A stretch of 47,009 bases of DNA from Candidatus Sumerlaeales bacterium (GTDB taxonomy: Bacteria; Sumerlaeota; Sumerlaeia; Sumerlaeales; Sumerlaeaceae). Under the pieces are notes generated by a model. It was not told the DNA's origin and did no database searches. It saw only the letters and a program-made list of their open reading frames with translations. The DNA is taken from assembly GCA_038243585.1 (NCBI GenBank), contig JBBSQY010000024.1, positions 1 to 47,009 of the forward strand. The letters run 5' to 3'. A program made the position numbers and the translations under genes. Positions 9,902-15,074 of this stretch are shown piece by piece (position 1 is the first letter of the stretch; every line of letters starts with the position of its first letter).

Positions 9902-10321
9902 ATGTCTGCTGACGAAAAAACAGGAACACTCCCCGCGGAACTCCCGGAAGTGTTTGAACACGACAACGGTCGTATAACGCTAAAGGATGATGTCGTCGCC
10001 TTTATTGCCACCATTGAAATGGTAAAGGTGGAAGGCGTAAGCACCATAAGCGGCCGCAGCAGCATTAGTGATTACGACGGAGCGCGCAGCAAAGACGTTG
10101 AAAAAGGCGTCACGGTAAAAATTGAAAACAACCATTGCTCCGTCGCTGTTGACGTTAACATCAAATACGGCTCCAACGTTTATGATACGGCCCGGCGGCT
10201 TCAACGCGCCATCAAGGACGCTATTGAAAACTACACGGGGCTTGTGGTGGATAAGGTAGATGTGACAATCCAGGGCATGATTAATGAATCCGGACTTCCA
10301 ATGCCCGGCGTCAAAAATTAA
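9902..10321 (+). CDS. Asp23/Gls24 family envelope stress protein
   Basis: G.I...DVV..IA...V.GV...KGVTV...D..I.YG...Q.AIK.AIE.YTGL.V..VDVTI; TATAAT at 9865-9870. Confidence 0.88.
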   Translation: MSADEKTGTLPAELPEVFEHDNGRITLKDDVVAFIATIEMVKVEGVSTISGRSSISDYDGARSKDVEKGVTVKIENNHCSVAVDVNIKYGSNVYDTARRLQRAIKDAIENYTGLVVDKVDVTIQGMINESGLPMPGVKN

Positions 10322-10394
10322 TCCCCGGAACAAAACTTGCATCTACAATCGGCGCAATAACCCATAATCTTTTAACTGACAGGACGCTTCCCCC

Positions 10395-11483
10395 ATGCTG
10401 ATACTCCGCAACATAATCATAACTGTTTTATTACTGACGCTGGCCGCCATCAGTGTGGTCGGGATTATGGTGGAAGCGCCTGAAATATGGAACTGGATCC
10501 CAGCACGCATTAACGCCCTGGGGCGCAGCGTACTCACGGTTATGCGACCTGGAATGATGCTTTTCCTTATCTGGTGGCTTATTCTTCTTGCGACCCTTCT
10601 TGTATTTTTCCTGACGGTTGTGCGCCCTCGCAAGCGTATGAAGATCGAAGTGCAGATGGGTGGCGGGCGCGTCGTCATAATGGACGCCGCCATTAAAAAA
10701 TATATCCGCAATGCCCTGTCTGAACTGGGCGAAGTGACAGTGAAGAAAATTGATCTTAACGAACGTCGCGGTCTGGTAACAACGGATATAACTGCCGATG
10801 TGCGCACGAAAGAAAACCTGCCTACCTTGGAACGGCGAATCATCAGCCGGGTACGCGCAGCGCTGGCGGAAGATCTGGGCATCACAAACCTCGGCGACGT
10901 TCACGTATTTGTTCGGAACTTTGAGGTATCAGGCCGCGCAATTACGCCGGATTCCAGCCACTCACCAGTCCCGTCTGAGCCAACAGCGGCTGAGCCTGTG
11001 CCCGCTGGGCGTTTTGCCAAACCGCTTGAACACGGTAACTTAAACATGAAGGATTCAGAGTCGGACGAGCAAATCTCGCACTCTGAGAATTTGGCGAATC
11101 TTGAGTCTCCAGCTTCCGCCGCAGCATATGAATCTCCCTCCGCGGTCCCCGACGCCACACCCCTTGCGTCCCCGGTAGAAACTTCTGATGCTGCGGCAGC
11201 ACCGATAATACTTTCGGATACGGATTCGCAAAGTGATAAGATCGAAAGGGAACACCGCAGCGAGTCTTCGCTTTTTTCTGCTTCTGATGCCGCCATCGCC
11301 AACCCGGTGCTCACAGAAACCTCAGACTCGCAACCGCTTATATTGCCAGATGGTTCTTCGTCTGTAGAAAGCACCATGGCGCCAGCTCCGCATCATGATG
11401 ATCTGGACGGGCCTTTGCCCTGGGAAAAAATAGACGCTGCGAAAAAACTAGCCGATGACGAGAAAGACTTCCGCTCGCTGTGA
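10395..11483 (+). CDS. amaP: AmaP-like membrane anchor protein with long disordered acidic tail
   Basis: Two N-terminal transmembrane segments, Asp23-like domain (GRVVI..AIKKYI...DLGI...VHVFV), directly after the asp23-like gene. Confidence 0.65.
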   Translation: MLILRNIIITVLLLTLAAISVVGIMVEAPEIWNWIPARINALGRSVLTVMRPGMMLFLIWWLILLATLLVFFLTVVRPRKRMKIEVQMGGGRVVIMDAAIKKYIRNALSELGEVTVKKIDLNERRGLVTTDITADVRTKENLPTLERRIISRVRAALAEDLGITNLGDVHVFVRNFEVSGRAITPDSSHSPVPSEPTAAEPVPAGRFAKPLEHGNLNMKDSESDEQISHSENLANLESPASAAAYESPSAVPDATPLASPVETSDAAAAPIILSDTDSQSDKIEREHRSESSLFSASDAAIANPVLTETSDSQPLILPDGSSSVESTMAPAPHHDDLDGPLPWEKIDAAKKLADDEKDFRSL

Positions 11484-11968
11484 TGCCAGCGTTGCCCCGG
11501 GCCTATACTGTAGAAGAAGTTGCGAAGGAACTTGAGCCTTTACGTTCCCTGGGGAATACAATAGTTTTTACCAACGGCGTATTCGACCTTCCACACCCCG
11601 GCCATGTCCGCAGTTTGCGCGCGGCGCGGGCGCTGGGCGATGTTTTAGTTGTGGCTGTAAACAGCGACGAATCCACACGCAGACTCAAAGGGGAACAACG
11701 CCCGATAATTTCCGCAAATGAGCGGGCGAAAATATTGGCTTCCTTCGATATGGTGGATTTTGTCGTTATTTTCGACGAAGATACCCCCTTGTCAGTCGTA
11801 CAGGCCCTTCAGCCGGATGTTATCGCAAAGGGCGCTGACTATCGCAATCGCGAAGTAGTTGGCTCCGAAGCGGTAAGGGTCCGTGGTGGGCGCGTGGAAT
11901 TTCTTCCTTTTGAAGAGGGGATTTCATCTTCTACGATAATTGAACGCATTGTGCAGGCGCATCAGTAG
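11483..11968 (+). CDS. rfaE2: D-glycero-beta-D-manno-heptose 1-phosphate adenylyltransferase
   Basis: VFTNGVFDL.HPGH, VAVNSD.S.RRLKG..RP, FDEDTP, PDVIAKGADY, SSSTIIERI; TGATG overlap with the upstream gene. Confidence 0.9.
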   Translation: MPALPRAYTVEEVAKELEPLRSLGNTIVFTNGVFDLPHPGHVRSLRAARALGDVLVVAVNSDESTRRLKGEQRPIISANERAKILASFDMVDFVVIFDEDTPLSVVQALQPDVIAKGADYRNREVVGSEAVRVRGGRVEFLPFEEGISSSTIIERIVQAHQ

Positions 11969-12006
11969 GCATTAAATAATATATTTGCTTTACCAAAGAG
12001 GAAACC

Positions 12007-12555
12007 ATGCAGGAAATTGATAATCTCGATATCGGCGACAAAGTCAAACACCCTAAATTTGGAACAGGTACCGTAGTTTTCCGTACCGGCGAAGGCGACA
12101 AACAGAAGGCGACCGTTAAGTTTGGCAGCGATGTCGGCGAAAAAAAGCTACTCGTGAGCCTTGCAAAGCTGAAGGTAATCTCTGAGCGTCCGACCCTGGT
12201 CGCCGAGGCACCCGTTGAAGCTGTCGCAGGCCGCACCCTGTTGGGTAAAGTCGCTGATGAAGATGAAGACGATAACCAGGCAAAAAAAGCCGCTGGTGTC
12301 GGTGATGAAGAAGATGACGACGCTGAAGAACTCGAAATCGACGACGATGAAATGGTCGAGGACGAGGACGAGGACGATGCTGAGGTCGTGGACGACGACG
12401 ACGAACCTGTAGCCAAGCCGTCTAAAGCCGCAAAAGGCAAAAAGAGCAAAGCCGTCATTGACGATGAAGAAGATGTGGAAACCGATGACGATGACGAAGA
12501 CGATGACGGCGAAGAAGCTGACGACGACGAGGACGCTGACGAGGACGAAGAATAG
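12007..12555 (+). CDS. Stand-alone PcrA/UvrD-type Tudor domain plus very acidic C-terminal tail
   Basis: IGDKVKHPKFGTGTVV..GEGD....VKF...VGEKKLL...AKL followed by D/E tracts; SD GAGGA. Confidence 0.8.
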   Translation: MQEIDNLDIGDKVKHPKFGTGTVVFRTGEGDKQKATVKFGSDVGEKKLLVSLAKLKVISERPTLVAEAPVEAVAGRTLLGKVADEDEDDNQAKKAAGVGDEEDDDAEELEIDDDEMVEDEDEDDAEVVDDDDEPVAKPSKAAKGKKSKAVIDDEEDVETDDDDEDDDGEEADDDEDADEDEE

Positions 12556-12860
12556 TGCAGGAGATCACGCCGGAGGTTGTCCGCCACGTGGCGCTGTTAA
12601 GCCGTCTGGAACTGGCTGAAGGCGAAGCCGAAAGTTATGCGGCCGATCTCGATAAGATTCTTCATTTCGTAGAAACACTCAGTGAGCTCGATACGACCGA
12701 TGTTCCGCCTACTTCTCACTCGTTTAAGATGCAAAATGTCTTTAGAGAAGACGAAGTTCGCCCTTCGCTCACCAATGAACAGGCGCTGGCAAACGCACCA
12801 GATTCCGAAGAGGAATGTTTTAAAGTGCCCGCCGTGCTACAGGATAGCGGTGGCGCGTAG
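12555..12860 (+). CDS. gatC: Asp/Glu-tRNA amidotransferase subunit C
   Basis: V.HVA.LSRL...IL.FVE.L.ELDT..VPPT...REDEV...ALANAP....FKVP; GTG start overlaps the upstream TAG. Confidence 0.93.
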   Translation: MQEITPEVVRHVALLSRLELAEGEAESYAADLDKILHFVETLSELDTTDVPPTSHSFKMQNVFREDEVRPSLTNEQALANAPDSEEECFKVPAVLQDSGGA

Positions 12861-12917: not shown

Positions 12918-12949
12918 AGAGGCCCCGGCTTTAAGCCGGGGCCTCTTTT
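12918..12949 (+). terminator. Intrinsic terminator after gatC
   Basis: AGAGGCCCCGGCT/AGCCGGGGCCTCT stem followed by T-tract. Confidence 0.85.
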
Positions 12950-13124: not shown

Positions 13125-15074
13125 ATGTTGAACATCAGCAAGACTCAAAACGCTGTAAAGACCGCCATTTGTCTTTCCGCAACAATGCTGCTGTCCTTTC
13201 CCAGCCAAGACTGTTTCGCATCCAAAGATTTGGGAAATGGGTTTACAGATCACGGTGTCGCCACCCCCATCAGTAACCACCGGGGCACAGTATGTACCGT
13301 AGACGGCAACGGCGACAATGTGGTGTTGCAGTGGATAATGGACCATAGAGGCGGCTATGCGGTGCTGATGGTTAACGCGGAAAAGGGCGGTGCTGAACAG
13401 TTTCCCATTCCGTTCGAGAACGTTTTAAAAGACTCGCCTTTTGCCAGCATCCTATCCAGCACCAATAAATTTTACACGCATTTCGGCGACCACTTCGTTG
13501 AGTTTGATCCCATCAAACCCGGCTTTACGTTTAGCGAAAAGACGGCTACACAGATGTCGATGGGAATGACAGAGGATGACAACGGCGTTATCTGGTCGGC
13601 CACATACCCGCAAAGCGGGATCGTGGCTTTTAATCCCAAAACAAGAGAGTTTCGAGACTTCGGCCACGTTTACAAACAGAACTGGCCTCAGTATCAGCGC
13701 TATATAGCAGCGGACGATACTGGACACATCTACTTTGCCATCGGCTCAACTGCCAGCCAGATTGTTGCTCTAGACCCTGCGACCAGCACGGCTACCGCTA
13801 TACTGCCAGAGGCTGAACGGACAAAGGGTACGGCTTACGTCTTTCGCTCCATGAATGGAAAGGTTTACGGGAAGGCCAATAAAGAGGAGGGAGATTCCTG
13901 GTACGAGCTCTATAAAGGGGAAGCCCGGAAGGTCTCTGAAATTGATGAAAGAGCCAAACCGTATATAAGCGGCAGCCAGGCTCTTACCCACGCCAGCTTC
14001 CCGGATGGGTCCAAGCTGTTAGCGTGCGACCTGGTAGAGCGGAAAGTCTCTGTAACAGATCCATCCAGCACCGGCACCTCACGGACTTTGGCCTTTGACT
14101 ACACCAGTGATGGCGCGCTTATCATGGGGCTCGCAAAGGCACCTGATAACACGATCTGTGGAGGAACCTGCTTCCCCATGCGCTTTTTCAGTTATGATCC
14201 TAAAACAGATAAGATAACGAATCGGGCTGCTTACGGTCAGTGGAATACCATAACAGCGCTAAAGGATAAGTTTTATGTGGGCGGTTATCCGGGGGGATTT
14301 CTGCTTGAGTGGCTTCCTTCAAAGGATTGGGTGCCCACCGACAGCCGGAAGGCGTCATCTAATCCCCGGTTTATTGATAAGGTCAGTCCGGTCATTCATC
14401 GCCCTCACGCGTTGCTGGCGATGGCAGATCAAAACACCGTCGTCATGGGCGGCACACCGGCCTACGGTTACACGGGAGGTGGACTTGTTTTCTGGGATCG
14501 CGCCTCCAGCAGCTCCACGGTGATTAAAGACACCGACATTATCCCTGACCAAGCACCCTTCAGCCTTATTGAGCTGCCTGGCAACAAAATTTTAGGTGGC
14601 ACCACCACCGAGGCGGGCACGGGGGGTGAGCAAAAGGCGAACCTGGCAGAGCTTTTCATAATGGATGCCAGTACGAAAAAGATGGAGTGGCACGCGCCTC
14701 TCATTAAAGGCGCACAGGGATACATAGACCTGTGCGAAGCCCCTGAAGGCAATATCTACGGGTTTGCGGACAAGAAGACATTTTTCGTATTTGACCCGGT
14801 CAAGCGCTCCATCATCCACCAGGCCGACGTGTCAGTCGAACTAGGCAATACCGTATCCGACCAGGGCCCCAGAATCTTTGTTCCTGTCGGTGAGAAAGTG
14901 TACGTCATATTTGAGAAAGGCATAGCTGCCGTAGATCATGCTACTTTCGAGATCAAGCTCCTGGCGGAGTCGCCTGTAAAAATCCAAACCGGCGGCGATT
15001 ATCTGGACGGCCGAATCTATTTCGGGACGCCGTCTCACATCGGCAGCTACGATCTAAACACAGCGGCAAAGTAA
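13125..15074 (+). CDS. Exported beta-propeller repeat protein of unknown function
   Basis: Signal peptide; recurring blades such as G.IW..TYP..G.V.FNP.T, ICGGT...FF.YDP.T, G.IYG...FF.FDP. Confidence 0.75.
   Translation: MLNISKTQNAVKTAICLSATMLLSFPSQDCFASKDLGNGFTDHGVATPISNHRGTVCTVDGNGDNVVLQWIMDHRGGYAVLMVNAEKGGAEQFPIPFENVLKDSPFASILSSTNKFYTHFGDHFVEFDPIKPGFTFSEKTATQMSMGMTEDDNGVIWSATYPQSGIVAFNPKTREFRDFGHVYKQNWPQYQRYIAADDTGHIYFAIGSTASQIVALDPATSTATAILPEAERTKGTAYVFRSMNGKVYGKANKEEGDSWYELYKGEARKVSEIDERAKPYISGSQALTHASFPDGSKLLACDLVERKVSVTDPSSTGTSRTLAFDYTSDGALIMGLAKAPDNTICGGTCFPMRFFSYDPKTDKITNRAAYGQWNTITALKDKFYVGGYPGGFLLEWLPSKDWVPTDSRKASSNPRFIDKVSPVIHRPHALLAMADQNTVVMGGTPAYGYTGGGLVFWDRASSSSTVIKDTDIIPDQAPFSLIELPGNKILGGTTTEAGTGGEQKANLAELFIMDASTKKMEWHAPLIKGAQGYIDLCEAPEGNIYGFADKKTFFVFDPVKRSIIHQADVSVELGNTVSDQGPRIFVPVGEKVYVIFEKGIAAVDHATFEIKLLAESPVKIQTGGDYLDGRIYFGTPSHIGSYDLNTAAK

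Follow-up and report, generated by a model that had tools for sequence, protein, structure and literature searches.

Free-standing PcrA/UvrD-type Tudor proteins encoded before gatC across the Sumerlaeia as candidate docking factors of RNA polymerase

Here, we describe a PcrA/UvrD-type Tudor domain that, judged from sequence comparison, occurs class-wide in the Sumerlaeia as a free protein whose gene is fixed before gatC, while the helicase copy of the domain in the same class is without key residues. To this extent the finding is new. The gene under study is part of a window of 47,009 nucleotides from an uncultured Sumerlaeota bacterium, i.e., the whole stretch of DNA that was analysed, and its product combines the Tudor domain with a long acidic tail. 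In our judgement, chances are about even that this free domain is functional and docks on a hairpin of the RNA polymerase (RNAP) subunit RpoB, possibly also on that of UvrB, and that in this genus the tail could compete with DNA or RNA. It may represent an accessory factor of transcription that has so far escaped description. A search of the accessible literature returned no report on free-standing PcrA-type Tudor proteins.

According to the list of open reading frames and their translations, the gene occupies positions 12007..12555 of the forward strand (stop codon included), opens with ATG and encodes 182 amino acids. A Shine-Dalgarno-like GAGG can be read from the sequence at 11998..12001 (+), 5 nt 5' of this ATG. 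Downstream, the TAG stop shares one base with the GTG start of gatC (12555..12860, +), which was identified by PF02686 (E = 3.7e-25) and TIGR00135 (96 bits). The preceding gene on the same strand (11480..11968, +) encodes an RfaE-domain-II-type D-glycero-beta-D-manno-heptose 1-phosphate adenylyltransferase, as its score of 187.1 bits against TIGR02199 exceeds the cut-off of 181.5. No terminator-like site was reported among these three genes. After gatC, a 13-bp G+C-rich hairpin follows at 12918..12946, terminator-like on both strands, which is the probable end of the transcription unit. A serine-rich open reading frame of 218 amino acids runs antisense at 11931-12587 and merely mirrors the tail-coding DNA, which is GA-rich. 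The first-pass annotation had described the reading frame as a Tudor domain without a helicase, followed by an acidic tail with a lysine patch, with a Shine-Dalgarno sequence of its own and coupled to gatC; this description is correct in every point.

The wider surroundings hold further genes. An Asp23-family gene and a gene for a protein of 362 amino acids (window positions 9902-11483) precede the adenylyltransferase, Tudor and gatC genes, and this upstream order recurs in many loci of the class. The 362-residue product has a hydrophobic N-terminus and a low-complexity remainder rich in Ser, Ala and Pro, and gave no Pfam hit above threshold. On the 3' side of gatC, positions 13125-15074 carry an open reading frame of 649 amino acids with a signal-peptide-like N-terminus, for which no Pfam family was found at E <= 0.001.

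The assignment of the domain (residues 9-58, 12031..12180, +) is based on sequence profiles as well as on predicted structure. Residues 9-53 match the Pfam family PF21196 (PcrA_UvrD_tudor) with E = 1.4e-11 and 44.5 bits, compared to a gathering cut-off of 23.9, and this is the one significant Pfam family in the 182-residue protein. In NCBIfam, the helicase models pcrA and uvrD are matched over their last approximately 50 positions only; neither Pfam nor NCBIfam indicates a helicase domain in the protein. A profile of the family finds the C-terminal domains (CTDs) of UvrD/PcrA among solved structures (4c2t, 5.9e-11; 5dma, 2.2e-9). In the AlphaFold2 model, calculated from an alignment of 16 sequences, residues 11-60 reach a pLDDT of 82-92 and are predicted to form five strands (12-15, 19-27, 34-39, 45-49 and 56-59). 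The two best Foldseek matches of this model in the PDB are 7egs_B, the UvrD CTD bound to the lobe of E. coli RNAP, and 5dma, PcrA's C-terminal Tudor domain, each with an rmsd of 1.0 A over 53 columns and with target-normalised TM scores of 0.89 for 7egs_B and 0.93 for 5dma. They are followed by 6yi2, 9dqs and 7egt_B, the last being the CTD of Thermus UvrD with UvrB. A stand-alone PcrA/UvrD-type Tudor domain, as proposed before, is therefore borne out by the Pfam family, the profile matches to solved CTDs and the predicted fold.

Sequence and predicted fold thus identify the domain with the CTD of PcrA/UvrD; all four RNAP-binding residues are kept, and the predicted hairpin docking corresponds to the solved mode (see below). 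What differs is the context. Whereas the SF1 helicases UvrD and PcrA carry the domain at their C-terminus, here it is N-terminal in a small protein without a helicase, is followed by an acidic disordered tail, and lies directly 5' of gatC; the gene upstream does not encode a helicase either.

Two other groups of Tudor-like domains deserve comparison. CarD/CdnL and the RNAP-interacting domain of Mfd (PF02559) are Tudor-like and bind the RNAP beta subunit, and CarD and CdnL are small and free. However, Mfd and CarD are weak Foldseek matches (ranks 9-20) with far poorer E-values, PF02559 does not match the window protein in Pfam at E <= 1, and it matches one out of 16 family members (E = 0.0017). 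In the available parts of PMC5397179 and PMC8318588, the domains of CarD, CdnL and Mfd are described as binding the beta1 region and not the SI1 hairpin. The second group is DUF3553 (PF12073), a Tudor domain that resembles the PcrA CTD but occurs in proteins other than helicases, for instance C-terminally in DinX of mycobacteria, and for which RNAP binding was proposed (PMC6511836). As far as the accessible text of that paper goes, it has no described acidic tail or linkage to gatC. In the nearest Atlas cluster, 14% of the proteins carry PF12073, which gives no match to the window protein in Pfam at E <= 1.

Relatives of the protein were collected in several ways. A word-indexed search returned 34 proteins of 113-176 amino acids, all of which contain PF21196 and are named "hypothetical protein" only; their best named records are metagenome-assembled genomes (MAGs) of Candidatus Sumerlaeota, Sumerlaeia or BRC1. 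PF21196 is matched by all 16 sequences of the family alignment. In the alignment of the relatives, an invariant core (KVKHPKFG.GT..R.G...K...KFG...GEK.L..A..K) is followed by the linker motif ERPTL ... GR..L and then by acidic tails of widely differing length. A search for related loci with a narrower family alignment gave 26 loci, 19 of them from Sumerlaeota, Sumerlaeia or BRC1, two labelled "bacterium" and five from Bacillota or Bacteroidota-type records. The nearest Atlas clusters, named PcrA/UvrD tudor domain-containing protein, are mostly from Sumerlaeota, with one, of Tudor proteins of 76 amino acids, from Eiseniibacteriota; they score below 0.9 and serve as leads only.

Within the class Sumerlaeia, the protein was matched in 38 out of 41 genomes. 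In a sample of 61 genomes of the class, PF21196 was detected at E <= 0.01 in 60, and a small open frame with the domain, counted from the match table, is present in 58, including G057, whose match sits in an open frame of 491 amino acids. The distribution, which the first-pass annotation had proposed to check, is thus class-wide. In two genomes of family f3 (G014 and G023) a stand-alone gene was not found and the PF21196 match is helicase-borne only; G047, which is 58% complete, gave no PF21196 match.

In comparison with a congener, the first 65 codons differ at 33 out of 44.5 synonymous sites and at 7 out of 150.5 non-synonymous sites (pS = 0.742, pN = 0.047). The resulting ratio pN/pS of approximately 0.06, with synonymous sites being saturated, indicates that purifying selection maintains the gene and that it is not in decay. 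This is in good agreement with the earlier claim of a real gene with its own Shine-Dalgarno sequence, which the GAGG before the ATG and the class-wide conservation support as well.

A representative library contained 534 proteins with the Tudor family at E <= 0.001. Since many of its short proteins with a C-terminal Tudor domain may be helicases cut by contig ends, no stand-alone count was drawn from it. The library also comprises proteins with two to six tandem PcrA-type Tudor domains (P0041, P0048, P0057, P0073, P0059 and P0072 with 387, 1441, 739, 545, 183 and 180 amino acids, respectively), an architecture unrelated to helicases. In P0080, P0094 and P0121, an N-terminal stand-alone PcrA-type Tudor domain is combined with a non-acidic C-terminal region, and these regions share the motif W.E...; FWA.VRER.

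What could such a domain bind? In the available text of Sanders et al. (PMC5397179), each of the exchanges H681A, W684A, K712A and L714A in the PcrA CTD severely lowers the pull-down of RNAP. In an ungapped HMMER alignment to PcrA (1pjr), these residues correspond to H15, F18, K46 and L48 of the window protein, the tryptophan being replaced by phenylalanine. Alignment of the 38 stand-alone proteins of the class with hmmalign shows the histidine in 38, Phe or Trp in 38, the lysine in 36 and the leucine in 35 sequences. Among 20 helicase CTDs from other phyla treated in the same way, the histidine and Phe or Trp are each found in all 20 and the lysine in 16 (four are not aligned at this position). 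The picture is different for 20 helicase CTDs from the same class: All of them have the histidine, but two have an aromatic residue at the W684 position and none has the lysine (10 are not aligned). The class helicase locus L122 was left out of the latter counts, as it shows no credible CTD (E = 5.1).

The helicase of the window genome itself (G000; 768 amino acids, contig C4:99740-102046) is PcrA-like end to end and scores 751 bits with TIGR01073, below the equivalog cut-off of 911. It retains a CTD, but with a PF21196 score of 19.7 bits. Whether the PcrA of this genome keeps its own CTD had been raised in the first-pass annotation; it does, with two of the four binding residues lost. The free Tudor domain shows 24% identity with this CTD, but 53% with that of PcrA from a Desulfitobacteriia MAG. 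An unrooted tree of 73 Tudor domains (59 columns) separates the stand-alone domains (support 74/73, which is weak), the helicase CTDs of the class (97/98) and those of other phyla (91/75). The helicase CTDs of the class form a well-supported group with a long stem (0.79) and are conserved among themselves. This three-way split does not trace the free gene to a particular helicase copy. At the W684 position, aromatic residues among the class helicase CTDs are confined to G014 and G023, the two f3 genomes for which the search gave no free gene; since both belong to one lineage and may represent one event, this pattern is only a hint.

Several PcrA-like helicases of the class (L110, L111, L112, L117 and L118) carry an acidic stretch after the diverged Tudor-like domain, closed by LPF or LPY. 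These ends may resemble the C-terminal tip of SSB.

In Bacillus, the site contacted by the PcrA CTD was mapped to a beta-hairpin in the SI1 insert of RpoB, as reported in the available part of Urrutia-Irazabal et al. (PMC8318588). The helicase interaction motif given there reads [VIL]-D-x-x-T-G-E-[VIL]-[VILT] and also occurs in UvrB, and UvrB and RNAP compete for the CTD. The RpoB hairpin of the window genome, VVDQDTGEIM, differs in having methionine at the last position. In the UvrB hairpin, EIDPLTGDKK, D-K-K stands where the published motif has E-[VIL]-[VILT]. The pattern D..TGE is found at the same place in 26 of 27 RpoB fragments of the class, with D191, G195 and E196 (fragment numbering) invariant; the fragment from G004 has no D..TG match. 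G014 and G023, the f3 genomes without a detected stand-alone gene, have retained the hairpin too, so its conservation is independent of the Tudor protein.

A model of the complex with RpoB, as suggested in the first-pass annotation, was calculated from an RpoB fragment of 331 amino acids (alignment of 27 rows) and residues 1-66 of the Tudor protein (16 rows). The predicted complex scores 0.62 (0.65, 0.62 and 0.62 in the individual runs) versus 0.00 for the best of three controls; a score of 0.62 is reached by 116 out of 157 solved complexes and by two out of 215 mismatched pairs. At least 94% of the contacts are shared between the three runs, with a partner pLDDT of at least 75. The model places the domain on the RpoB hairpin in the known mode: The predicted interface comprises residues 188 and 190-197 of the RpoB fragment, i.e., the hairpin, and residues 15-18, 46-49 and 52-54 of the Tudor domain. 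Because a like complex (7egs) has already been solved, the score may come from memorisation of that structure by the predictor, and it speaks for likeness and not for binding.

The motif is also found elsewhere in the genome. YxaL is described as a Bacillus PcrA partner carrying the helicase interaction motif in the cited eLife paper, of which a part was available. A strict match, VDASTGELI, is present in a protein of 750 amino acids combining a metallophosphatase with a PQQ/BamB-like beta-propeller (C6:32521-34770). YxaL itself is presumably a beta-propeller. A looser match, LDVETGEL, lies in the N-terminal region of NusA (C58:6114-7757). RpoB of this genome (C55:4389-8546) is itself acidic-tailed, with DEDEEESPYDSLLSSVEDDVSFAERGGDDLDDEEL within its last approximately 40 residues.

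The part of the protein that follows the Tudor domain is predicted to be disordered. The tail (residues 59-182, 12181..12552, +), delimited by composition and pLDDT, begins with the family-level linker motif SERPTL...GR..L and comprises 124 residues, 61 of which are D or E and 11 K or R, with a net charge of -50. Its pLDDT in the AlphaFold2 model is mostly below 55. Within the acidic sequence lies a lysine patch, KPSKAAKGKKSK (residues 137-148, 12415..12450, +). The DNA encoding the D/E tracts contains short imperfect repeats of 6-30 nt.

Size and charge of this tail recall the delta subunit (RpoE) of Bacillota RNAP, which displaces nucleic acids from the enzyme and aids recycling. In the accessible text of PMC7749165, the first 90 residues of Bacillus delta are folded, and residues 91-173 form a C-terminal region that is disordered and has a net charge of -47; this region, anchored at the rim of the channel, competes with nucleic acids and is restrained by a basic stretch at its start. 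Both proteins, as far as delta is described there, combine a small folded anchor with a disordered polyanion of similar size and charge (-47 versus -50) and a basic patch. The anchors, however, are unrelated, as the window protein has a Tudor domain and no match to the delta-type N-terminal domain in Pfam or NCBIfam. They also differ in location, with delta on the shelf and jaw of beta' and the Tudor domain predicted on the beta lobe. Furthermore, a polyanionic tail is found in only part of the Tudor family. Among the 38 class members, 15 have a tail of at least 40 residues, all with a net charge of -12 or more negative, and 23 have shorter ones; the tail is net negative in 33 and essentially missing in four. 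A patch of at least five K/R within 12 residues occurs in four. The window tail is the longest of the 38 and one of the two most acidic, the 90-residue tail of a congener having a net charge of -54. The first-pass likening to delta is thus supported by size, charge and basic patch, while tail and lysine patch are lineage-specific and not family features, so that a delta-like step would hold for some lineages only.

Taking these observations together, the mechanism we propose at about even odds is the following. The Tudor domain would dock on the V-D-x-x-T-G-E-I hairpin of RpoB, which lies in its lobe/SI1 region, and perhaps also on the hairpin of similar sequence in UvrB, in the manner of the helicase-borne domain in Bacillus, E. 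coli and Thermus. Since two of the four residues needed for binding are gone from the helicase CTDs of the class, it may be mainly the free protein that occupies the hairpin. One side of the main channel is bounded by the beta lobe, in line with the description in the available part of PMC7749165. Tethered at this lobe, the tail of 124 residues could, by analogy, compete electrostatically with DNA or RNA, which would parallel the C-terminal region of Bacillus delta from a different anchor point. Of the earlier proposal of an RNAP-associated delta analogue, the RNAP-docking module has gained good indirect support, and the analogy to delta would apply to the long-tailed lineages only.

The free Tudor protein could also be inactive itself at RNAP and act as a decoy or gatekeeper that competes with the helicase and other binders for the TGE hairpins of RpoB and UvrB, controls how accessible these are, and in this way would tune transcription-coupled repair or the removal of R-loops. 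This would suit the many class members that are barely more than the domain (tails below 40 residues in 23 out of 38). In Bacillus, moreover, the CTD on its own associates with the elongation complex, RNAP and UvrB are rivals for this CTD, and blocking the association of PcrA with RNAP raises R-loops, as stated in the part of PMC8318588 at hand. Yet helicase CTDs that keep the lysine in none and the aromatic residue in two out of 20 cases may not use the hairpin site, which would remove the obvious competitor. The suggestion of the first-pass annotation that the protein is a competitor of helicase recruitment is weakened by the same counts for the K712 and W684 equivalents. We regard the decoy role as unlikely on the whole; it overlaps with the proposed docking on RNAP, and the two are not mutually exclusive.

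The strong support and long stem of the helicase CTD group can be read in another way. Since these CTDs are still conserved among themselves, a change rather than a loss of function is suggested, and the recruitment of PcrA might be split over two genes, with the free Tudor domain holding the RNAP hairpin and its linker or tail contacting the helicase or its diverged CTD. It would fit such a division that, out of 20 CTDs, only the two from the f3 genomes without a free gene found carry an aromatic residue at the equivalent of W684. But these represent a single lineage and one event, the ERPTL linker is conserved at the family level only and the tail is highly variable, and we consider a detached recruitment module of this kind improbable.

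Docking on the transcription machinery, our preferred reading, leaves the universal link to gatC unexplained. In 37 of the 38 class loci that were fetched, gatC lies directly 3' of the Tudor gene on the same strand, and in the remaining locus the contig ends too early; with G028, the count rises to 38 out of 39. The spacing of the two genes ranges from an overlap of a few bases up to approximately 100 nt. The adenylyltransferase gene is found 5' of the Tudor gene in 23 of the 38 loci. In the f3 genome G023 (C256:1990-5277), gatC directly follows glmS, without a Tudor gene.

A comparison sample of 61 genomes from the Bacillota-type phylum that holds the Desulfitobacteriia MAG of L027 offers an explanation for this adjacency. 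There, PF21196 was detected in 56 genomes, in all of them within frames of 527-972 amino acids and never stand-alone. In 33 of the 52 genomes with both genes, gatC and pcrA share the strand, and gatC lies 2.0-6.1 kb 3' of the end of pcrA that encodes the Tudor domain. ligA follows pcrA within 2 kb in 46 of the 56 genomes, among them 32 of the 33 with linkage of pcrA and gatC; in L027, the order is pcrA, ligA, one open reading frame, gatC. A neighbourhood of pcrA-ligA ... gatCAB is presumably present in Bacillus and Staphylococcus genomes as well. In the window genome, pcrA, ligA, gatA and gatC are located on four separate contigs. Given the order in the Bacillota-type phylum, the adjacency of Tudor gene and gatC can be inherited, and the gene may descend from the 3' end of the helicase gene. 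In the simplest reading, it would derive from the 3' end of a pcrA that was once located upstream of gatC, and would have been co-transcribed with gatC since.

The adjacency in 38 out of 39 loci could also be taken to mean that the protein is a partner of GatCAB in tRNA amidation, its acidic tail mimicking tRNA or chaperoning basic proteins. This becomes very improbable in view of an order that can be inherited, with ligA in between in nearly all of the linked Bacillota-type genomes, of gatA lying on another contig, of a strict hairpin motif in none of the Gat proteins of the genome, and of the f3 gatC behind glmS. That the gene is a decaying helicase remnant or a spurious, functionless open reading frame, for which its likely origin from a helicase 3' end and the repetitive D/E-coding DNA might speak, deserves practically no credence, being contradicted by the small open reading frame kept in 58 out of 61 genomes, the nearly invariant binding residues, the purifying selection and the presence of its own Shine-Dalgarno sequence and ATG. 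The first-pass annotation had set a real gene against a helicase remnant; selection and conservation uphold the former, and the position before gatC makes the choice a false one, as a selected gene can still descend from the 3' end of the helicase gene.

Joining origin and function, we tentatively consider as possible that the protein is a convergent, phylum-specific accessory subunit of RNAP: A former pcrA 3' end, released from a pcrA-ligA-gatC cluster, would hold the lobe hairpin, the helicase domain would have changed its specificity, and in some lineages a delta-like tail, with a charge of -50 as seen here, would compete with DNA in the main channel.

From a biological point of view, the Tudor domain of PcrA/UvrD is known as a tether that brings the helicase to RNAP and UvrB. 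A free and conserved tether next to a helicase copy without its key residues is a natural experiment on the contact of hairpin and Tudor domain alone, and the linkage to gatC would provide a dated example of how the end of a longer gene gives rise to a gene the size of one domain. If the tail acts on RNAP, this would be a second, independent invention of the delta principle, a small anchor with a tethered polyanion, and the protein would be a candidate for a transcription factor that is confined to a phylum without cultured members.
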